Source: a virus
Strand: one strand, 5' to 3'
Length of the DNA: 64,000 nucleotides
UHGV virus genome: UHGV-1351982
Both the position numbers and the translations under genes were made by a program. The notes under the pieces are model-generated. The model was not told the DNA's origin. It did no database searches and saw nothing but the letters and a program-made list of their open reading frames with translations. Below, piece by piece: positions 1-11,362 of the stretch. Positions within the stretch are counted from its first letter, which is position 1; every line of letters starts with the position of its first letter.

Positions 1-159
1 GAAGATATTCTCGAAGAAGCTAAAGGTCAATTAAATCGCATTGGGATCTATGTTCCAGGCCTAAATGATGATTGATTTTCATTAGCCCAATCCTGATTAC
101 CGAGTCATTTTGGCTCGGTTTTCTCTGTGCTCAAAGACACTGATAGCACCTTCGGAAAA

Positions 160-196
160 ATTTTACTTGCAGGATGCTCAAAATCTTGATATAATA
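160..196 (+). promoter_or_regulatory. sigma70-type early promoter (extended -10 TGaTATAAT at 187-195)
   Basis: -35 TTGCAG about 17 bp upstream; AT-rich flanks; conserved downstream box TATTGAATTGAGAGA. Confidence 0.6.
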
Positions 197-691
197 TTTA
201 TATTGAATTGAGAGACATTAGTAAAAATTGATTTTGCTAATTTTTCTTGTTTACAATCCGCAATACGGAACAGTTAGGCTGCCCCATTAAGGGTTGTTTT
301 AACTATTACTAGTGTTTATACTGCATTAGTTAATTATCAATTAAGTGATCTGCGTACCCTGAATTCGGAAAGGTAAATCCAAACCGTGCATATTTAGCTC
401 GTTATATAGGCAGAGCTTTATATGGGGGTGCGAACGAAAAGAGCAGCGAATGGTGACACGTCCAGTAGCCACCTACCAATAGGATAGTGAGGGCAATCAG
501 AATCGGCTTAGCGGCCAATGACCTAGGTTCTGATCTGGATAAGAGTTAAGAGAGCGCAGCACTGAGGTATGATAACTTATTCATACTGCTTGATGATGAT
601 TAATGTTTGTGTAAATGGTAGTAATAGTTGTTCTATTCTTTTGAATAGTCCTAAAGAAAGATATCCGAATAACCAACATAGGAGTATTGTT

Positions 692-3481
692 GTGTTCTCA
701 ATCCTACAAGGTCACGCAGGATTTTCCAGAGATAAAGCCACTGGCATCTGGAAAGAGATCAAAGTGGAAGATTACACCTTTGCAAAGCGATTCTCTAAAG
801 AGCATCCAGAAGGTAAACCAGCTTCCATGCCCTTCAAATTTGATGTACTTGAAGAACTTGACCCGCAAAACCTTGCTGAAATGTTACCTATCATGCGTCG
901 TCTTACCAAAGACCCGCATATTGTAGCTATTCGTGGTAAATGTTTAGCTCCAAAAGATAATGTGCGTCGTACCAGGGGAAACTTTAACGTATCCAATCCT
1001 AGTCATATTATTGCTATGGACGTGGATGGTATTGTAGATACTGGTGGCTATGACAAGTTTAATCTTGTTGGCATGGCACGTCATATTATTAAGATGTTGA
1101 ATAGTATTAGTGAGGATATGTTTCCTCTTGATGCAGGGTTTATTGCCCATGCATCGTCTTCGGCTGGATTAAAACCAGGTATCCGAATGCACTTAATGCT
1201 AGAATCTAATGTCAAGGTAACGCAGGGACAGTTAAAGTTCTTATTTACATCTATCAATGACAGTAGTAAGCAAAAGTATGGCTTTGATATTGCTGACTTA
1301 GCTTATTATTCTTCTGTTCAGCTTCACTATTTTGCAGATCCCTTATTTGATGATGGTATAGTCGATCCGTTTAAAGCGGAGAATAAACCACGTCTTGTGT
1401 ATGTTAAGGGTTCGAAGGTGAATCTACCTAATAACCTAGTTGACTTTGAAACAACTAGAGGTGAGTTTAAAGAAGAGTTCTACTCCTTACTTGACCAAAT
1501 TAAAGGCAAGAAGGCTGCATCTGATAAAGTGGAAGAAACCATCAGCGAACTAGAAGAAGCTGAGGATGGAGTGTACCTGCGTATTATCCCAAAACTTTAT
1601 CACAGAGCGTTAGAAGATGGTGTTGACTTTACGTGGTTAGAACGTGAGATTAAACCAGCTTTATCTGAATATATTGCAACTAAAGATAATAGTCGTAATA
1701 TTCAGGATTACTTTAATAACGGTCGTAAGCAGGCTCTCAAAGCCTTTGTAAATAACTCCAAACGTGAGATTCCACCAAACTTAAAAGGTGTACCATTAAA
1801 ACGTCTAGACACAGATTCTCCACCAGAAGTTCCGTACCTGAAAATTAACATTGTACCCCCAAAAGGACATTTAACATTTGTTAAGGCAAGTCTTGGTACG
1901 GGTAAAACTACAGCAGTAACTAAGTGGCTAGATGCAGGTGTTCTTCCAGGAAACTTTATTGCAATCACAAATACTAGGGCACTTGTATCTTCTAACGCGA
2001 AGAAATTCGGTGCTGGTCAGTATGATAAGTCAGTTGATATGCTGAACTTCAAACGTGGTGCCATTGATCGTATGTCTTCAACTATTCACTCTATCCATAA
2101 GTTCAAGAGCTTTGTGGGTCAGATTGATACGATCTTTATTGATGAATGTGATGCAGTAATGAACGATCTGTTATTCGCTCCGGTTGTTAAAAACCGTCGT
2201 GAATGTATTCAGGTTCTTCGCGATATTCTTATTACTGCTAAAACTGTTATCTTATCTGATGGTGATATCAGTGCAGAAACGATTGAAGCCTATGGTTCTT
2301 TGATTGATTTTGATAAACCGGTTGCGTTCTATAATCATCACCGTAAAATGCTGGCGAAAGCTCACGCTTATGAATTCCCTGACGAATCCAGTATTTGGGT
2401 TGCACTTCAAACATCTCTAGAGATGGGTGAGAAGTCAATCCTAGTATCTGACTGTGGACCAGATGAACTGAATGAAAAGGGAATGGCATTACGTCGTAAT
2501 ACTGGTGCGTTAGTTAAAGAAATTCACTCAAACTCTACGTCTGATGTAGATATCCGACGTATTCTGGATTATACAACTAATGAGCTAATTGATCAACAGA
2601 TTGATTGTTTGTTATGTAGTCCATCTGTAACGAGTGGTGTTGACTTTAACTATTTTGATAATGTATTCGTAATCACTAGAACCTCAAACCAAGCGCCAAA
2701 CATGCGTTTCCAAGCAATCAGGCGCGACCGTGGTGCTCAGAACATTTATTATTTTATTGATAAATCTACGAGTGGATTTTCTGCGGGTTCCGAGCAATAT
2801 AATATTGACGAAGGTTGGATTGAGTTAGCCCAACAACTGTACGCACGCCGTCGTGAGCTGGAATCTAGAAACTATACTAGTACTTTGCGTTATTATCTGC
2901 TTGATCAGGGTGCAACTATCGATATTTTCAGCGAAAGCTGGGGAACTATCGAAGGTGCAGGCAAAGAGTATATAGAAGAGCGAATCAAAGCTATTTTGCA
3001 CTCAACTCCTGAATATTGCGCACCACGTCATGCAGACGCATATGAAGCTAAATTGCTTCTGGTTCGCTATTATCATCTGGATTCTATCAAAGATGTAACA
3101 GTGGAACATGTTGAACAGTATATCAAGGATAAACCGAATGATAGAGCTGCATTTTTCCATAAGATGCACGAGATGTTCTGGGAAGATATCAAGAAGTGTT
3201 CAAACGTAACAATCAAACCTTTTATTGAAGCTCTTAAGAATAAGAAGAAGGATTTCTTCCTTAAGACAGGTCAGAGTGCTAACCCAAAATATGCTCGTAT
3301 GTATCTTGGCATGATGGGTATCGGTAAAGATCTGGATACGGAAAAGATTGTGGACTGGTACAGAACTTACTGTAAGATCGAATGTATGCCGATTCCAGTT
3401 AAGTTTATGACAGATGAAGAACGTCAGATGCATGAGGAAGCTCTTGCTGAATTGGGAGCTAGAAATGACAGTGAAGAATAA
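692..3481 (+). CDS. putative replication origin-binding / initiator ATPase (P-loop, helicase-like)
   Basis: Track ORF 569-3481; likely start GTG 692 preceded by AGGAG. Walker A GTGKTT and Walker B-like IFIDECD motifs. Sits upstream of the replication module. Confidence 0.6.
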   Translation: MFSILQGHAGFSRDKATGIWKEIKVEDYTFAKRFSKEHPEGKPASMPFKFDVLEELDPQNLAEMLPIMRRLTKDPHIVAIRGKCLAPKDNVRRTRGNFNVSNPSHIIAMDVDGIVDTGGYDKFNLVGMARHIIKMLNSISEDMFPLDAGFIAHASSSAGLKPGIRMHLMLESNVKVTQGQLKFLFTSINDSSKQKYGFDIADLAYYSSVQLHYFADPLFDDGIVDPFKAENKPRLVYVKGSKVNLPNNLVDFETTRGEFKEEFYSLLDQIKGKKAASDKVEETISELEEAEDGVYLRIIPKLYHRALEDGVDFTWLEREIKPALSEYIATKDNSRNIQDYFNNGRKQALKAFVNNSKREIPPNLKGVPLKRLDTDSPPEVPYLKINIVPPKGHLTFVKASLGTGKTTAVTKWLDAGVLPGNFIAITNTRALVSSNAKKFGAGQYDKSVDMLNFKRGAIDRMSSTIHSIHKFKSFVGQIDTIFIDECDAVMNDLLFAPVVKNRRECIQVLRDILITAKTVILSDGDISAETIEAYGSLIDFDKPVAFYNHHRKMLAKAHAYEFPDESSIWVALQTSLEMGEKSILVSDCGPDELNEKGMALRRNTGALVKEIHSNSTSDVDIRRILDYTTNELIDQQIDCLLCSPSVTSGVDFNYFDNVFVITRTSNQAPNMRFQAIRRDRGAQNIYYFIDKSTSGFSAGSEQYNIDEGWIELAQQLYARRRELESRNYTSTLRYYLLDQGATIDIFSESWGTIEGAGKEYIEERIKAILHSTPEYCAPRHADAYEAKLLLVRYYHLDSIKDVTVEHVEQYIKDKPNDRAAFFHKMHEMFWEDIKKCSNVTIKPFIEALKNKKKDFFLKTGQSANPKYARMYLGMMGIGKDLDTEKIVDWYRTYCKIECMPIPVKFMTDEERQMHEEALAELGARNDSEE

Positions 3482-3698
3482 AAAGTGGGAGACAAGGAAG
3501 TTTCCCGTAAAAGAACGTAAAACTTCTGTTTACGATACTGCGGAGAAACTATGTAGGGTTGTACCACCTCGTCTCGCTGGTATCCCTAATGTCTCCATAT
3601 GGTTACTTAAACAACGGAAGACTCGTGTGTCTCTTCGCATTGGCTTTGAGTTAGATAAAGTCTATGCTGAACTTGCTTCTTTGCTCAAAGAATCGTAA
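3465..3698 (+). CDS. hypothetical small protein
   Basis: In-frame ATG inside track ORF 3414-3698, overlapping the end of the upstream gene; basic protein; weak support. Confidence 0.3.
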   Translation: MTVKNKKWETRKFPVKERKTSVYDTAEKLCRVVPPRLAGIPNVSIWLLKQRKTRVSLRIGFELDKVYAELASLLKES

Positions 3699-3766: not shown

Positions 3767-4471
3767 ATGGCTGGTTCTCGTAGAAAGAAACTTATCCATG
3801 AAATCCCTGATGAAACCTTTAAAAAGGTTATTGAACATCTGGAGAATGGTGGTACTAAGAAAGCAGCATGTGAAATGCTCGGTGTTTCTTCTAACCCAAC
3901 TATGGAACGAATGATCGAAGAATGGAGAGATCGTCAGGTTCAAGTTGCGGAAATGAAAAAGAAGAAGCGCGGAACACTGATTGAGGGTGTTGAGCTTGCA
4001 AACATAATTGAACAGTATCTTTCTGGTGATTCTTTTGAAGAAATTGCTGATCGTAACTATCGTTCTGTAGCGATGATTAAATCTGTTCTGGAACGTTATG
4101 GTGCTCTGCTTCGTTTAAACGATATTGTTGATCCATTGAATCCTCCGCTGATTCCTGATGATGCAATGGCAGAAGAGTTTGAAGTTGGTGAACTTGTTTG
4201 GGTTCCTGGCTATCAGTGTATTGGTGAGATCAAGAAAGCAATGACTAATCCAGTTGGTTGTTATCGTGTTTGGTTGTTATCAGAAGGTAAACAACAGAAC
4301 GTGCACTATATGCACTACGAATTAGCTTCTGTTAAACATCTGGAAAAGCTGGGTGTTGACGTTAAAGCTCTAGGCTTTAAGTGGAGTCGTGAAGAAGTTA
4401 TCACGTTGGTTAATGAAGCTGTTAAAGCTGCCCTGAAACTCGATAAAGAGAAAGGAAAACGCCGTGAGTAA
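3767..4471 (+). CDS. putative DNA-binding regulatory protein
   Basis: 234 aa ORF with GAGGAG RBS and a conserved early promoter upstream; N-terminal HTH-like segment (GGTKKAACEMLGVS). Confidence 0.6.
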   Translation: MAGSRRKKLIHEIPDETFKKVIEHLENGGTKKAACEMLGVSSNPTMERMIEEWRDRQVQVAEMKKKKRGTLIEGVELANIIEQYLSGDSFEEIADRNYRSVAMIKSVLERYGALLRLNDIVDPLNPPLIPDDAMAEEFEVGELVWVPGYQCIGEIKKAMTNPVGCYRVWLLSEGKQQNVHYMHYELASVKHLEKLGVDVKALGFKWSREEVITLVNEAVKAALKLDKEKGKRRE

Positions 4472-6013: not shown

Positions 6014-6214
6014 ATGGCAATGACAATAACACTTCCAAAGATTCAAGCAAAACTTAATTTGCTCTCCATAGCAAGAATCAATTATCAGGATAGTATCGGC
6101 ACTCCAAACCAGAAAGCGTACAAAGATGCGTGGTTGAAAGAGGCTGCTGATTTAGCTGGTATGGCTGCTCAGTATAATAAAGAACTCAAAATGGAAATTG
6201 CAGACGATGAATAA
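6014..6214 (+). CDS. hypothetical small protein
   Basis: Track ORF 5996-6214; ATG at 6014 lies 6 nt after GAGAGGA, just downstream of a conserved promoter. Confidence 0.5.
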   Translation: MAMTITLPKIQAKLNLLSIARINYQDSIGTPNQKAYKDAWLKEAADLAGMAAQYNKELKMEIADDE

Positions 6215-7178
6215 TGTAAAAGACTTTATCAAACGTTGTCAAGAAGCGTACTACCAGGGAATGAGTCTTATTTCCGATGAAGAATATGATCGTCTGATTA
6301 AAAGATTCCCGTTAGAGGAAGAAATCGGGCCGAAAGGTGATATCCCTCATTTGTATCGTATGTATTCTTTACAGAAAGTCTATTACGATCGTGGTGATAA
6401 AGCTCCATTTAACCCATTAGGTCAGGTTGAAACTGATAAGTTAGATGGTTGTGCGATTTCTCTATTATATATTAATGGTGAATTTGTTCAAGCGTTAACT
6501 CGTGGTAACGGTATTCTAGGGAATGATGTAACGCATAACGTTAAGATGCTGAACATTCCTAAAACTATTTCCCAAAGAGTACCAACTCAAATCACTGGTG
6601 AAGTTCTCATTACTAAAGAAGTAGAGAACAAACGTAACTACGCTTCGGGTGCTATTAACCTGAAAGATAGTGATGATTTCATACAACGTATTGGTGAAGG
6701 TGGTTTAATCTTCGTTGCATATGGTATCCAGTGTTCAGCGGAAACAGTCGGTATTACAGAAGCCTATTTAAAAGATATGCTTTGGCTAGAGAATGAGAAC
6801 TTCTTGACAGTTGTTAATGTTCGTTCCTTTTTTAAATGGATTCCGACGGACGGTAAAGTTGTTCGTATTAACGACAACAATAAATTCTTCCGTGAAGGTT
6901 GGACTAATAAATTTCCTCGTGGTGCATTTGCTATTAAAGAGGATGAAGAAGGCGAAATTACCACACTTGTTAAAGTTGAATGGCAAGTAGGGGCTTCTGG
7001 TAAAGTAACTCCAGTTGGTTATTTCGAGCCGGTGATTATTGATGATGCCACAATTGTTAAAGCAACTCTTAATAACGTTGATTATATTAACGCTCTCGAT
7101 TTAGAGATCGGTTGCCAGATTCGAGTGATTCGTGCTGGTGGTGTAATCCCTTGTATAGTAGAGCGAGTATACGACTAA
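6198..7178 (+). CDS. NAD-dependent DNA ligase, adenylation-domain subunit (ligase subunit A)
   Basis: 326 aa; KxDG adenylation motif (ETDKLDGCAIS); followed by a separate ORF carrying the Zn-finger/BRCT part; split ligase as recalled for T5. Exact start (TTG 6198 or ATG 6207) uncertain. Confidence 0.8.
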   Translation: MQTMNNVKDFIKRCQEAYYQGMSLISDEEYDRLIKRFPLEEEIGPKGDIPHLYRMYSLQKVYYDRGDKAPFNPLGQVETDKLDGCAISLLYINGEFVQALTRGNGILGNDVTHNVKMLNIPKTISQRVPTQITGEVLITKEVENKRNYASGAINLKDSDDFIQRIGEGGLIFVAYGIQCSAETVGITEAYLKDMLWLENENFLTVVNVRSFFKWIPTDGKVVRINDNNKFFREGWTNKFPRGAFAIKEDEEGEITTLVKVEWQVGASGKVTPVGYFEPVIIDDATIVKATLNNVDYINALDLEIGCQIRVIRAGGVIPCIVERVYD

Positions 7179-7351: not shown

Positions 7352-7380
7352 TTTATATAAATTGATAAGGAAGAAATTTG

Positions 7381-8160
7381 ATGAAAATCGAAATTCCAAC
7401 ACAATGTCCCTCTTGTGGTTCTAAGCTAGATCTTGTCAACGGGCAATTATTCTGTAGGAATAAGTCCAACTGTCCAGCGCAATCAAGTAAGTTAATCGAG
7501 AACTTCTGCACAAAAATGAAGTTAAAGGGCTTTGGCCCGAAAACTATTGAGAAGCTGGAGCTGACTAAGATCTCAGAACTGTTTTACCTGACCGAAGAAG
7601 ATTTGGTCGGAGCTGTGGGTAGCAAGGTTGCCGCTAAATTGATTAGCGAGTTAAATACTAAGGTTCGCGGAGACATTGACTTTGGTTCAGTTCTCGGTTC
7701 TTTAGGAATTCCTCTTATTGGAGAGGTTGCAGCAAAGAAACTGTCCCAAAATTGCACTAGCTTCCACGATGTGAAGGCTGACGGCAAGGCTGGAGAAAAT
7801 TACAAAACCTGGCTAAATTCCCCACAAGGCAAGGATGTTATTGAATTACCGTGGAAATTCTCAACAGGTATTCGAGGTGCTAAAGCGGATATCATCATTA
7901 CAGATGATTTAGTTGCCCAGCCAAATGGAATCACGGTCTGTATTACCGGATCTTTGCAAGATTTTGCAAATCGAACGGATGCAACAAACTATTTAGAAAG
8001 TCTAGGATATACGGTTAAGAAGTCCGTTACCAAAGACGTCAAATACCTAATCTGTGAGGATGAATCAAAACGTTCTTCCTCATCTTATAAGAAAGCCGAA
8101 ACGAATGGGATAGAAATCCTGTCGATTAAAGAACTATTGGAGAAAAATAATAATGTCTAA
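7381..8160 (+). CDS. NAD-dependent DNA ligase, C-terminal subunit (Zn finger / HhH / BRCT-like)
   Basis: Track ORF 7378-8160, ATG at 7381 after AAGGAAG; Cys4 motif (CPSCGS...CRNKSNCPAQ); own promoter upstream. Confidence 0.75.
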   Translation: MKIEIPTQCPSCGSKLDLVNGQLFCRNKSNCPAQSSKLIENFCTKMKLKGFGPKTIEKLELTKISELFYLTEEDLVGAVGSKVAAKLISELNTKVRGDIDFGSVLGSLGIPLIGEVAAKKLSQNCTSFHDVKADGKAGENYKTWLNSPQGKDVIELPWKFSTGIRGAKADIIITDDLVAQPNGITVCITGSLQDFANRTDATNYLESLGYTVKKSVTKDVKYLICEDESKRSSSSYKKAETNGIEILSIKELLEKNNNV

Positions 8161-8937: not shown

Positions 8938-8970
8938 AAGGGGAGGGGGCTATGCTCCTTCCCCTTTTTG
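8938..8970 (+). terminator. intrinsic terminator
   Basis: GC-rich hairpin (AAGGGGAGGGGG...CCTTCCCCTT) plus TTTTTG, directly after gene 8153-8920. Confidence 0.6.
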
Positions 8971-9002
8971 CATTTAGAAGGCACGAAAGCGTGCAAAGGA
9001 GA

Positions 9003-10475
9003 ATGACCTTGTTTAACGTGCAAGCTGTAGTGTTGAAGATGCTTCTCGCTTCTGAACAGAAGCAAATAGCATTGGAAACATTCTCAAAACTGCATAAAGA
9101 TCATTTTAATGACGCTTTCTCCTCAATTTACCAAGCCGTCCAGAATTATTATAAGAAATATAACGCAATGCCGTCCATTGACGCACTGATGCTTGAGGCC
9201 AATAGGAACGCCCGCCTTTCTCAAGCTCTTGTCGTCTTAGCTAACACTCAAATTCCAGAAGTGAGCATGGAACAGGCGCTTGAAGTCCTAGAAGCCGAAT
9301 ATACACAGGATCTATTCCTGAAACTTCTAGAAACAGACGTGCTTCAAGATTTAACAATGCTGGATCAGGGAGAAATTCTCAACCGAGTTGCCTCCCTTCA
9401 CTTAAAATTAGAAGAGAAAGTAACGAATACTGGAAAGGTATTCAACGCAGACACAATGCGTATTTTCCAGAGAGAAGAAGATACCAAACTGAACTTGATC
9501 GCTCTTGGTATTTGTAATGAGTTCGACGCTCAAATTGGTTTAGCTCGCACAGAAACGTTACTGCTTGGTGGTTGGCGTGGTACTGGTAAATCCATTATCT
9601 GTTCAAACATACAGGTTCAGCAATATTTGAATGGAGACATTGCTCCATATTTCTCAATTGAGATGAAAGAGCACGAAGTGTTTAGACGTAATCTGGCTAT
9701 GTTAGCTGGAGTATCTGCATTAGCAATGCGTAATAACACTCTTGAAGGTGCTGCTCTGTTGAGATTAGCCAGAACTAGGGCTAGAATGTTTAATGGTGGT
9801 GAAGAGCTTTTCGATAACTTCGTTAAGCAATACACTATGGCTAAAATGAGTGACTTCTATGATATGGAAAGTAAACTCCTTGAAGGCTATGAGCTTCACA
9901 CTCCTATGATCATCGTTTACGATCCTGAACTGTCTATTACGACGGTTGACGTAGAATTAAATAAACTAGTTGCTAAATATGGTGATAAGGTTACTGTAGC
10001 TCTTCTAGACTATATTAACCAAACAAGACTTCCAGATTCAAAGACCATTGATATGTATGACTGGAAAGAACAGATGGTTGTTAGTTCATCTTTCAAATCT
10101 ATATGCCAGAAACATAACGTGGCTGGTGTTGCCCCTTACCAGATTGACCAAGATGGTAGAACGCGTATGTCTAAAGGGATTCTTGATTCCGCAGATATGG
10201 CTGCTAATCTTAACGCTGCAAAAGCTGATAATGGTCAAGGTGCTATTATGTTTGATTTCGTTAAGACTCGTTCCTCTGATAGTGTGAAGTTTATGCCTAA
10301 GATGAACTGGGAAACTCTACGAATGGATAACACTACCAACCTAGCAATGGAAGATATTGCGCAAATGGAAGCTGAGTTCGTTATTCCTATTGAAAAGGAT
10401 AAACCAGCTCAACCTAAACGTGCTAAGAAAGACAAAGCTGAAAATTCAACAGGTGAACAGGCCAGCGATATATGA
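9003..10475 (+). CDS. replicative DNA helicase (DnaB-like)
   Basis: Track ORF 8952-10475; ATG 9003 follows AAAGGAG and clears the upstream terminator hairpin; P-loop GGWRGTGKS; immediately precedes primase. Confidence 0.75.
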   Translation: MTLFNVQAVVLKMLLASEQKQIALETFSKLHKDHFNDAFSSIYQAVQNYYKKYNAMPSIDALMLEANRNARLSQALVVLANTQIPEVSMEQALEVLEAEYTQDLFLKLLETDVLQDLTMLDQGEILNRVASLHLKLEEKVTNTGKVFNADTMRIFQREEDTKLNLIALGICNEFDAQIGLARTETLLLGGWRGTGKSIICSNIQVQQYLNGDIAPYFSIEMKEHEVFRRNLAMLAGVSALAMRNNTLEGAALLRLARTRARMFNGGEELFDNFVKQYTMAKMSDFYDMESKLLEGYELHTPMIIVYDPELSITTVDVELNKLVAKYGDKVTVALLDYINQTRLPDSKTIDMYDWKEQMVVSSSFKSICQKHNVAGVAPYQIDQDGRTRMSKGILDSADMAANLNAAKADNGQGAIMFDFVKTRSSDSVKFMPKMNWETLRMDNTTNLAMEDIAQMEAEFVIPIEKDKPAQPKRAKKDKAENSTGEQASDI

Positions 10476-11362
10476 GTAGAATAACAGAACTACTTGATCT
10501 GAAAGGCATTGAATACAAAGACACAGGTGGGGACATCCTCATCTGTTGTCTCAATCCAGATCATGATGATAAACACCCAAGCTTGCGTATTGACCCTGAA
10601 TCAGGTATTATGCATTGCTTGAGCTGTGGCTTCGGTAGAGGAATACCGAGCATTTACCATTATTTTAATGAGACTCAGTACAGACAGTCACCAAGATTGT
10701 CACAAGTACGTAAAAAGATTTCAGAGATTAGGAATGGATCTACGAATCTTGCAATTCCTGAATCTGCTTACCTTTTCGAAGGTGATTTCCGAGGTATCAG
10801 TTCTAAGACCTTGAAGAAATATTTTGCTTTCCAACATCAAGCAGACTGGGAAGGCAGAATTGTATTCCCAATAACAGATGCTGTTGGACGCAATATCCTA
10901 TTCCTGGGACGTTCTATAAACAGTTCTGCCCCTCCTAAATACTTAGTAAAACCAAAACAAGTTTCACCACCAATTTTCCCTGTACGATATAATACACCAG
11001 TTCTTGTTCTAGTTGAAGGTATCTTTGATATGTTAAATCTAGAAGATAACGGTGTGGATTATGCTTCTTGCTGCTTTGGTACACATCAGTTTACATCTGA
11101 TAACATTGCCGATAAGTTCAGTCCTTACATTATTGCTGGAGTAAGAGTAGTAGTTATCCTATTAGATAATGATGCCTCTGGTAATAAAGCCGCACAAGCA
11201 CTAGCGAAGCTAATTCGTACAAAAACGCGTTTAACACCTGTAGTTGGTAACTTCCTTCTTCCAGAAGGCAAAGACCCAGGTGATTTAAATAAAGAAGAGA
11301 TCGATATGTTGGCTCAACGTATTGAAATTTTAGTTGCCGAATCGCTCAAAGATTTGGTATAA
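10472..11362 (+). CDS. DNA primase (DnaG-like: zinc finger + TOPRIM)
   Basis: 296 aa; zinc-binding CLNPDHDDKHPS...CLSCG; TOPRIM-like VLVEGIFDMLNL ... LLDNDASG; start overlaps helicase stop. Confidence 0.75.
   Translation: MSRITELLDLKGIEYKDTGGDILICCLNPDHDDKHPSLRIDPESGIMHCLSCGFGRGIPSIYHYFNETQYRQSPRLSQVRKKISEIRNGSTNLAIPESAYLFEGDFRGISSKTLKKYFAFQHQADWEGRIVFPITDAVGRNILFLGRSINSSAPPKYLVKPKQVSPPIFPVRYNTPVLVLVEGIFDMLNLEDNGVDYASCCFGTHQFTSDNIADKFSPYIIAGVRVVVILLDNDASGNKAAQALAKLIRTKTRLTPVVGNFLLPEGKDPGDLNKEEIDMLAQRIEILVAESLKDLV

Follow-up and report, generated by a model that had tools for sequence, protein, structure and literature searches.

The gene at 692–3481 of the analysed window, which is a stretch of 64,000 nt, likely encodes a single-chain primase-helicase that would serve T5-like phages as an initiator or restart enzyme, and not a pure 'origin-binding protein'. 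Judging from homology and the predicted model, residues ~1–250 of the product look like an archaeo-eukaryotic primase (AEP, primase-polymerase) domain with a complete active site and a predicted activity, so that T5-like phages probably have two primases unrelated to each other.

By its 98.7% nucleotide identity to Epseptimavirus phages, the window is assigned to a T5-like phage (Epseptimavirus). Aligned with the origin-binding proteins of T5-like phages, a comparison put forward in an earlier sequence-only reading of this DNA, the gene product shows 94% amino acid identity over 926 aa to T5 D2 (AAU05245), of which it is, on this homology, the orthologue. A forward-strand ORF is present at 569–3481, with 970 codons counted from the first ATG. 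The 569 start was rejected, as it merely belongs to the longest mechanical ORF, and the protein instead begins at the GTG at 692, which is also used in the GenBank annotations of near-identical phages and in the T5 D2 expression construct. The true gene therefore encodes 929 aa, very close to the ~930 aa of the sequence-only reading, and all four motifs quoted there are present (GTGKTT at aa 402–407, IFIDECD at 481–487, IAMDVDG at 107–113 and FPLDAGF at 144–150).

680..684, + strand: ribosome-binding site AGGAG, 7 nt before the start codon, in agreement with the annotated start in related phages
692..3481, + strand: CDS of D2 ('replication origin binding protein'), GTG start, 929 aa plus stop

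The ORF is not a chance one, because it is long and has hundreds of full-length homologues (E = 0); the uninformative PHROG 3712 also matches the full-length protein from the GTG start. The D2 gene is universal in Demerecviridae and syntenic in the early replication clusters where examined, and more than 900 genomes in the phage collection carry its N-terminal domain. The database labels on the protein vary, including 'origin binding protein', 'DNA primase C', 'replication protein' and even 'tail protein'. The GenBank label 'DNA primase C' reflects no DnaG-type domain, and neither a CHC2 zinc ribbon nor a Toprim domain was found in D2 by Pfam search. The same genome does encode a DnaG-type primase, as had been stated earlier, in a gene at 10472–11362 with CHC2 Zn-ribbon, DNAG_N and Toprim domains; this primase and a DnaB-like helicase are located 5.5–8 kb downstream of D2. 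No tRNA or tmRNA was found across the whole window.

The N-terminal domain carries the residues of an AEP active site at the following positions:

692..1441, + strand: predicted AEP-type primase(-polymerase) domain, aa ~1–250
1019..1027, + strand: AEP motif I, D110-V-D112 within IIAMDVDG, on strand 104–114
1121..1141, + strand: FPLDAGF (aa 144–150), not a conserved catalytic motif
1154..1192, + strand: AEP motif II region, S155-S-S157-A-G159 ... R-M-H167, with H167 on strand 164–176
1295..1297, + strand: AEP motif III catalytic Asp D202, in FDIADLAYY
1391..1393, + strand: R234, candidate Arg of motif IV, where strand 235–238 begins

Residues were counted over 136 homologues, comprising 88 close, D2-like proteins and 48 distant ones, down to ~25% identity. 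D110 and D112 are invariant in this set (136/136), as in two further alignments, and D202, which aligns with the motif III Asp of the All3500 AEPs, is present in all 136 as well. Within motif II, position 155 is S or T throughout (136/136) and G159 is kept in 133, while H167, aligning with the His of 'SIH' in the All3500 AEPs, is His in 130 and Arg in the remaining six. The secondary-structure elements that bear the motif I–III residues are those expected in an AEP. R234 is Arg in 84 of the 88 D2-like proteins and in 30 of the 48 distant homologues; by position, R234-L235 would correspond to the 'Rh' flange motif IV of PrimPol-PV1 (PMC5862659), and R234 would be the equivalent of R231 in PolpTN2. 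Based on these positions, D110, D112 and D202 are assigned to metal binding and H167 to nucleotide binding, and R234 probably belongs to the active site as well. Of the two acidic motifs singled out by the sequence-only reading, IAMDVDG corresponds to AEP motif I, but FPLDAGF is not conserved, its D147 being kept in 51/88 close and 19/48 distant homologues; the third acid is D202.

The top Foldseek matches of the N-terminal domain were nearly all AEP enzymes, not cyclases, and the predicted domain has the catalytic AEP fold (derived RRM/palm). The earlier suggestion of a primase-polymerase-like domain thus holds at the level of homology: together with the invariant D110/D112/D202, the fold matches describe an AEP domain with a conserved acidic triad, and not a non-catalytic fold lacking one. 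It is improbable that the domain is a dead AEP relic, retained by the helicase for DNA binding, loading or oligomerisation. In a dead domain the catalytic residues are lost, whereas the three metal-binding Asp are invariant here, across about 25–100% identity, while other positions vary freely, and the motif II His gives way only to a conservative Arg. A relic would nevertheless fit the very low sequence similarity to characterised AEP families and the full DNA binding retained by the T5 D2 mutant K405E, according to which non-helicase parts bind DNA (PMC3632103).

The sequence-profile searches of Pfam, NCBIfam and PDB gave no match above chance for aa 1–390. A DUF445 match (E 0.15) and the RNase chain 4py5 (E 0.02), the latter on the charged helical region 272–364, were both rejected as chance. 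GGDEF chains were the sole PDB sequence matches of the domain profile and aligned around the DxD strand, which could point to a different nucleotidyl transferase of the palm type, for example a GGDEF-like cyclase. We regard this as hardly credible, and rejected the matches, since their E-values (0.18–0.43) do not rise above chance, the domain lacks a GGDEF signature, the fold searches return AEP enzymes, and the partners of the domain are helicases and PriCT.

Among the published AEP families, the architecture of D2 is the same as that of the All3500-family AEPs fused to UL9-like or 'VOG3399-like' SF2 helicases in mobile elements (Kazlauskas et al. 2018, PMC5862659), but the two AEP domains are only remotely related. 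In the hhalign comparison of the D2-type and All3500 profiles the three motifs were in register (P = 7e-4, against 0.18–0.26 for control profiles), with a probability of only 26%, and the motifs themselves differ, being SSSAG..RxH and D..LY..VQxHY in D2 and TGGKSIH and D..NPSRVMRLPG in All3500. The comparison with the PrimQH AEPs was not significant (P 0.097, probability 0.6%), while All3500 and PrimQH matched each other at 99.7%. Membership of the PrimPol-PV1 supergroup (PolpTN2, PrimQH, PrimHYQ, All3500, RepB', RepE/RepS and InversePrim) was therefore rejected, as the D2 profile does not cluster with its families. None of the T5-like, Salmonella, Escherichia or Vibrio phages is in the family lists of PMC5862659, and no link of D2 or the T5-like origin-binding proteins to an AEP or primase domain was found in the literature searched.

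Searching for homologues with the N-terminal fragment alone or with the domain profile brought up just a handful of fragments or unnamed proteins, and the productive searches were those with the full-length query and an exhaustive representative search. A total of 56 distant homologues of the domain have as partners VapE-like (12), DUF5906 (9), PriCT_2 (6), D5_N (3), Pox_D5 (2) and PriCT_1 (1) domains. VapE-like, DUF5906, PriCT, D5_N and Pox_D5 are classic partners of AEP primases. Other homologues, of ~1000 aa, showed weak DEAD/ResIII helicase matches. One stand-alone relative has alpA on one side and a DUF5906/VapE helicase on the other, with an integrase ahead of it and terS following; in a satellite-like island, this is the slot of the 'primase'. 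The relatives of the domain, both stand-alone and fused to SF3 helicases, were observed in satellites, islands and plasmid-like elements, and none of them is recognised by Pfam.

The N-terminal region of ~400 aa proposed earlier is real, but it is divided: the AEP part takes up ~250 aa, and aa ~258–356 form a separate helical bundle.

1463..1759, + strand: alpha-helical bundle, aa ~258–356

The helices of the bundle are 261–269, 278–288, 294–308, 313–330 and 337–356. The bundle takes the position of the PriCT or Zn-binding domains in other AEP-helicase fusions, and in other AEP primases the PriCT or helix-bundle module contributes to holding the template together with the initiating nucleotide. 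When aa 255–368 were searched for homology to PriCT, the only matches were D2-like AEP+SF2 proteins. The bundle includes the 'HTH' predicted at aa 308–329 of T5 D2 (Wong et al., PMC3632103).

The remainder of the protein consists of a helicase core and a C-terminal domain, as follows:

1859..2791, + strand: SF2 helicase core of UL9/CyRepA1 type, two RecA-like domains, aa ~390–700
1895..1912, + strand: Walker A, G402-T-G-K405-T-T407, invariant
2132..2152, + strand: Walker B/motif II, I481-F-I-D-E-C-D487, with F482, I483, D484, E485 and D487 invariant
2609..2731, + strand: helicase motifs V (LLCSPSVTSGVD, aa 640–651) and VI (QAIRRDR, aa 674–680, arginine finger), assigned after PMC3632103
2804..3451, + strand: C-terminal all-helical domain, aa ~705–920, with high-confidence helices over 709–920

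In the predicted model, the core folds into two alpha/beta domains (394–540 and 544–700), and the residues C642, S643, P644, S645, T647, G649, D651, Q674, A675, R678 and R680 of motifs V and VI are invariant. The NCBIfam model CyRepA1 (NF042913) matched aa 392–701 at E 1.8e-35 (model positions 2–310 of 595), the family profile matched PDB UL9 chains over aa 386–522 at E = 3.7e-6, and Foldseek aligned the full model with HSV-1 UL9 (9hgi/9hgj) at E = 2.5e-15. Pfam PF02399 (Herpes_ori_bp) scored 21.9 bits at aa 391–533, against a gathering cutoff of 20; as the match spans just profile positions 48–197 of 820, the membership holds for the first RecA domain only. On these matches, and in accord with the experiments on T5 D2, the central ATPase is classed as a UL9/CyRepA1-type SF2 helicase, which bears out its earlier description as helicase-like. 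For the C-terminal domain there was no Pfam or PDB sequence match; the Foldseek alignment with UL9 spans 553–594 columns, more than the helicase core, counted as columns and not residue by residue. A role of this domain in DNA or partner binding is only inferred.

T5 D2 is an ATP-dependent bipolar 3'–5'/5'–3' helicase, probably working as a monomer or low oligomer, and its K405E substitution abolishes the ATPase and helicase activities (Wong, Sayers & Sanders 2013, PMC3632103). It has the same length, genome position and GTG start as the protein of the window, identical Walker A K405, Walker B and motifs V/VI, and no substantive sequence difference from it, so the ATPase and bipolar helicase activities very likely apply to this protein too, by orthology. 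The earlier description of the protein as uncharacterised was right for the N-terminal ~390 aa, which PMC3632103 leaves unexplained, but not for the helicase, whose activity was published in 2013. That paper covers the helicase core, two coiled-coil predictions and one HTH prediction, and considers no N-terminal primase domain.

In GenBank, D2 is usually read as a UL9-like origin-binding protein, whose N-terminal region would merely recognise origin DNA and perform no nucleotidyl-transferase chemistry. The Herpes_ori_bp match, UL9 as the best PDB match by sequence and fold, and the HTH prediction are in line with this reading, yet we find it very improbable. The two proteins share the SF2 helicase subfamily, but the sequence similarity is confined to the first RecA domain (aa 386–522 in the PDB comparison), from which alone the 'origin binding' name derives. 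UL9 has no AEP domain and no counterpart of aa 1–390, and the AEP evidence on the N-terminal domain of D2 counts against the reading as well. Herpesviruses have their AEP in another protein, the primase UL52. Furthermore, the DNA binding of T5 D2 is structure-dependent rather than sequence-specific (PMC3632103).

The cyanobacterial proteins CyRepA1 (Slr7037) and CyRepA2 share with D2 the plan of an N-terminal primase-type domain, a helical connector and a DEXDc helicase within ~950 aa, but their N-terminal domain is DUF3854 (Toprim-related) and that of D2 is AEP. CyRepA1 is essential for autonomous plasmid replication in cyanobacteria (PMC9978351, PMC10079941). D2 is not itself a CyRepA1 member, as its 122.9 bits fall below the family cutoff of 200, and only the helicase module is related. 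In AEP-SF3 fusions, such as poxvirus D5/E5, the ASFV C962R PrimPol and the phage or satellite proteins with PriCT and D5_N, VapE or DUF5906, the helicase is a hexameric SF3 enzyme, whereas that of D2 is SF2 and behaves as a monomer or low oligomer.

In the proposed working of D2 as a primase-helicase, the helicase would open duplex DNA or track on ssDNA, the activity shown for T5 D2, and the AEP domain of the same chain would make a primer on the exposed strand. The family-A polymerase of the phage would extend this primer, after which the separate DnaB-like helicase and DnaG-type primase would take over lagging-strand synthesis. The Toprim-like fusion of CyRepA1 indicates that helicases of this family are repeatedly paired with an N-terminal primase module for replicon initiation. 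Weighing against a second primase is the DnaG-type primase already in the phage, beside which another is not obviously needed. An active AEP domain may instead fill gaps, reprime or support restart where templates are damaged or nicked, with the DnaG-type primase doing the normal priming, an alternative that we consider unlikely. In many systems, AEP PrimPols prime anew downstream of a lesion, and T5 DNA carries site-specific nicks. The complete DnaB/DnaG pair of the phage suits this alternative, as does a D2 that acts as a monomer or low oligomer and unwinds short duplexes, nearer to a repair than to a replicative helicase (PMC3632103). Set against it are the replication-initiator positions of the distant AEP-domain relatives in plasmids, satellites and islands, a helicase module of the type found in plasmid and herpesvirus initiators, and the universal and, where examined, syntenic place of D2 in the early replication clusters.

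If the N-terminal third is an active AEP, the studied 'initiator-like' helicase of T5 becomes a primase-helicase, and its bipolar unwinding and probably monomeric state need re-reading. The widespread annotation of D2 would be corrected, and primases of both the bacterial and the archaeo-eukaryotic type would be encoded throughout the Demerecviridae. A 2016 global survey reports a single dsDNA virus with both an AEP and a DnaG-type primase, Rhodothermus phage RM378 (PMC4889955), an unrelated phage likened to the D2 phages here by its two-primase content; T5-like phages would then be a second and much larger case.

Upstream of D2, a conserved promoter and a folded leader were observed.

166..195, + strand: promoter of the D2 transcription unit, CTTGCA-N17-TGATATAAT, context outside the protein
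241..633, + strand: 5' leader of the D2 mRNA, structured, ~390 nt, and a candidate for a new RNA element

The D2 leader extends ~470 nt behind the promoter, which falls inside a 'putative promoter' annotated in the T5 record AY692264 and reads CTTGC-N17-19-TATAAT in 8/8 aligned Demerecviridae. No Rfam match (E ≤ 1) was found on the D2 strand or in the leader, and an Hrs1 match, at chance level on the opposite strand and outside the leader, was rejected. The region 1–760 holds no iteron-like array, only short, chance-like direct repeats. The upstream region of Vibrio phage KIT04 showed no unusual folding energy (z −0.53), and the two conserved sequence blocks are missing from the Vibrio and Aeromonas members. 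The MFE z-score of the leader is −4.04 on the + strand and −1.94 on the − strand, and its consensus contains 52 pairs, 21 of them with compensatory changes, as assessed with shuffle and slide controls. The leader is thus a candidate structured RNA with covariation support, and it is possibly linked functionally to D2.

For T5, a classic model phage, the start of replication and the location of the origin are, to our knowledge, undefined, and no defined origin or binding site for T5-like phages was found in the literature searched. We raise, as a speculation with little probability, that D2 founds an undescribed AEP family, i.e., one absent from Pfam and the published AEP family lists searched, and that the AEP-SF2 protein, promoter and leader RNA form a self-contained origin-initiator module in a two-primase system, where the origin would be marked or primed by transcription or RNA structure, as in ColE1, T7 and pSYSA/CyRepA1. 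Such a module would place the long-unknown replication origin of T5 beside D2.

An open reading frame of 970 codons does exist at 569-3481 (+), as the sequence-only reading had reported, but it is only the longest mechanical ORF; the true start of the D2 gene, the orthologue of the phage T5 helicase gene, is a GTG at 692, which is common to the annotated near-identical phages and to the published T5 D2 expression construct. The start region and gene read as follows:

680-684 (+): ribosome-binding site AGGAG, upstream of GTG 692
692-3481 (+): D2, 929 aa from GTG 692

All four motifs quoted in that reading were found in the protein, namely IAMDVDG (aa 107-113), FPLDAGF (aa 144-150), GTGKTT (aa 402-407) and IFIDECD (aa 481-487). 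The window belongs to a T5-like phage, in which this gene has 98.7% identity to its counterparts in Epseptimavirus, among them that of Salmonella phage PRF-SP13. An alignment of 926 residues gives 94% identity between the protein and T5 D2 (AAU05245, labelled 'putative DEAD/DEAH box helicase; similar to OBP'). Purified T5 D2 showed bipolar, ATP-dependent helicase activity, which K405E abolishes, and its behaviour is that of a monomer or low oligomer; its conserved region was placed at residues 389-690, and an HTH (308-329) was predicted along with coiled coils, while the first ~390 residues were left undiscussed, and the word 'primase' occurs only in one reference title (PMC3632103). The names of D2 homologues in GenBank vary widely, including 'replication origin binding protein', 'DNA primase', 'DNA primase C', 'replication protein', 'repA' and 'hypothetical protein', with one record, from Klebsiella phage vB_KpnS_Uniso31, reading 'putative tail protein'. 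In some GenBank records, features named 'replication origin binding' extend under the non-coding leader of the gene, which suggests that these records use an upstream ATG.

AlphaFold models of D2, built from a 42-sequence alignment, were confident, with a pLDDT of 88 for the N-terminal 390 aa and 87 for the full-length protein, and they give the following architecture:

aa ~1-250: alpha/beta domain
aa 253-256: poorly ordered linker
aa ~258-356: five-helix bundle, conserved among D2-like proteins only
aa ~394-540 and 544-700: two RecA-like alpha/beta domains
aa ~705-920: all-helical C-terminal domain

[quoted passage not shown] Across an alignment of 42 full-length homologues, the most divergent at 32% identity, D110, D112, S155, S157, G159, H167, D202, Y206 and R234 are among the N-terminal residues that never vary. 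When 88 D2-like and 48 distant homologues, obtained by searching 1.84 billion representatives exhaustively, were aligned to the family HMM, D110, D112 and D202 were invariant (136/136), position 167 was His in 130 of the 136 and Arg in the other six, and R234 was kept in 84 of the 88 D2-like and 30 of the 48 distant sequences. Judged from sequence, these residues match the published AEP pattern of motif I (hhhDhD), motif II (sxH) and motif III (hD), with R234 a candidate for motif IV (PMC5862659). In the AlphaFold model, strands 104-114 and 164-176 and the position just ahead of helix 203-206 hold the catalytic-motif residues, as would be expected of an AEP. Of the two acidic motifs that had been singled out earlier, IAMDVDG thus holds the invariant D110 and D112, whereas FPLDAGF does not bear out the suggestion, its D147 being kept in only 51 of 88 D2-like and 19 of 48 distant homologues. 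A model in which D2 carries a dead AEP domain is disfavoured, since the catalytic acids are absolutely conserved.

Comparison with the described AEP families placed the domain less precisely. Against the All3500 family, with AEP domain sequences taken from the PMC5862659 supplement, profile-profile alignment with hhalign brought motifs I, II and III into register (P = 7e-4, with control profiles at P 0.18-0.26) at a probability of 26%; against PrimQH there was no significant match (P 0.097), while All3500 and PrimQH match each other at a probability of 99.7%. The relationship to All3500 is a remote one. Fold scores for the domain were moderate, and profile searches of Pfam, NCBIfam and PDB returned no match to it. 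We conclude that the domain belongs to the AEP superfamily and is not placeable among the families described. The His to Arg swap in motif II, seen in six of the 48 distant homologues (e.g., ...GLRARLWFWL...), is also known in the DR0530-like AEP family (PMC5862659), and may hint at the place of the D2-type domain among AEPs.

The helicase module of D2 is nearest to that of the herpesvirus origin-binding protein UL9. The Pfam PF02399 match covers the first RecA domain only (21.9 bits vs a cutoff of 20), the family profile reached E 3.7e-6 against PDB UL9 chains, and Foldseek aligned the D2 model with UL9 at E 2.5e-15 over 553-594 alignment columns. The NCBIfam model of the cyanobacterial plasmid replication protein CyRepA1 (NF042913) also matched aa 392-701 (window 1859-2791) at E 1.8e-35, under the family cutoff. 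In CyRepA1/2, which are ~950 aa long, a Toprim-related DUF3854 at the N-terminus is followed by a helical connector and a helicase of the D2 type, and the plasmid cannot replicate autonomously without CyRepA1 (PMC9978351, PMC10079941); their primase-like domain is thus Toprim-related, whereas that of D2 is of the AEP type. AEP domains of the All3500 type are also found fused to UL9-like SF2 helicases (PMC5862659). Taken with D2, these proteins indicate that the helicase family repeatedly bears an N-terminal primase module, of either type, in replicon-initiation proteins, and one helicase family apparently became linked to Toprim-related as well as AEP primases.

As the sequence-only reading had noted, the genome encodes a DnaG-type primase as well; a gene for a DnaB-like helicase lies beside it:

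8952-10475: DnaB-like helicase
10472-11362: DnaG-type primase with CHC2 Zn-ribbon, DNAG_N and Toprim

The window also codes for a family-A polymerase, a D10-type helicase, SbcCD-like proteins and a flap endonuclease. The T5 orthologue binds DNA independently of ATP hydrolysis, and its ATP-dependent bipolar unwinding depends on K405 (PMC3632103). Based on sequence and structure, the predicted AEP active site would synthesise primers where the helicase of the same chain exposes ssDNA, and D2 would start or restart DNA synthesis in the manner of plasmid, viral and satellite primase-helicases. By the same kind of analogy, the family-A polymerase of the phage would extend the D2 primer, and the moving fork would be served by the DnaB-like helicase and the DnaG-type primase. 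The main rival to this initiator role, which we infer by analogy, keeps the enzyme active but assigns it to repriming or repair; a pure 'origin-binding protein', as some records name it, has no direct support.

The D2 gene and its helicase were known before, the primase-helicase plan is not new in kind, and the label 'DNA primase' is already attached to D2 homologues in some GenBank records. Among the papers that could be searched, none was found that describes T5 D2 as carrying an AEP domain or tests for one. For dsDNA viruses, a 2016 global survey (PMC4889955) described AEP and DnaG primases as mutually exclusive, apart from phage RM378 alone. The N-terminal domain occurs in at least 906 phage records, apparently all Demerecviridae-like, from hosts including Salmonella, Escherichia, Klebsiella, Vibrio, Aeromonas and Proteus, among others.

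More distant relatives were found in other settings, and their domain partners are a further line of evidence for the AEP assignment. The domains carried by 56 distant AEP-domain homologues were VapE-like (12), DUF5906 (nine), PriCT_2 (six), D5_N (three), Pox_D5 (two) and PriCT_1 (one), while other homologues of ~1000 aa gave weak DEAD/ResIII matches, the same AEP plus SF2 plan as in D2. A stand-alone relative of 379 aa was observed in two metagenome contigs:

L003 8001-9140: 379-aa relative of the D2 N-terminal domain
L004 6139-7278: 379-aa relative of the D2 N-terminal domain

The gene order around it is integrase, small ORF, alpA, the relative, a DUF5906/VapE-like SF3 helicase and terS (small terminase subunit), a layout like that of a phage satellite or a P4/PICI-like island, in which the relative takes the place of the primase in a satellite-like island. 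A type I restriction enzyme and GmrSD adjoin this island. Another relative lies within an element carrying ParA/ParB, a transposase and an integrase.

An unusually long non-coding stretch (120-691) precedes the D2 coding sequence, and a leader of ~470 nt follows its promoter:

99-119 (+): terminator-like hairpin closing the upstream gene
166-195 (+): promoter CTTGCA-N17-TGATATAAT
241-633 (+): part of the leader that appears structured
265-286: conserved block ACGGAACAGTTAGGCTGCCCCA
505-516: conserved block GGCTTAGCGGCC
300-309/621-630, 345-355/554-562 and 497-504/526-533: long-range helices

The promoter falls inside a 'putative promoter' annotated in the T5 record, and the pattern CTTGC-N17-19-TATAAT is kept in all eight aligned Demerecviridae, from Escherichia to Providencia phages. 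In every genus examined (comparison loci L009-L015), the gap upstream of the D2 homologue ranges from 570 to >1100 nt and is free of annotated protein-coding genes or has nothing but tiny ORFs of 29-55 aa, which is unusual in dense phage genomes. Against shuffled sequence, the leader folds far more stably on the + strand (MFE z -4.04, 0/100 shuffles as stable) than on the - strand (MFE z -1.94). The leader alignment holds only seven sequences, which represent four genera (Epseptimavirus, Tequintavirus, Sugarlandvirus and Myunavirus); both blocks are conserved in it and the sequence between them is divergent. Of the 52 pairs in the consensus structure, which was derived and scored on the same alignment, 21 show compensatory changes; paired cells amounted to 92.1% vs 81.1% in shuffles (0/500 reaching this value), pairs changed on both sides numbered 21 vs 9.3 (0/500), and slid registers gave at most 13. 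Several positions are G-U pairs, and RNA made from the D2 strand therefore fits. No Rfam family matches the stretch, the two enterobacterial blocks were not found in Vibrio or Aeromonas members, and the folding energy of the upstream stretch in Vibrio phage KIT04 was not unusual. The leader is a candidate new structured RNA adjoining a putative replication-initiator gene, and it may regulate the gene as a leader, take part in initiation as an RNA or be an element associated with an origin.

Two further features of the neighbourhood were recorded:

3465-3698 (+): 77-aa ORF, the next gene after D2, overlapping the D2 stop codon by 17 nt
6198-7178 and 7378-8160 (+): split NAD-dependent DNA ligase, A and B subunits, two ORFs ~200 nt apart

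The ligase is annotated as the same two-ORF split in related phage records. In T5, an HNH endonuclease gene lies directly after D2 (3781-4281 in the T5 locus, L005), whereas the window is without it, so the two differ by the presence or absence of a mobile endonuclease.
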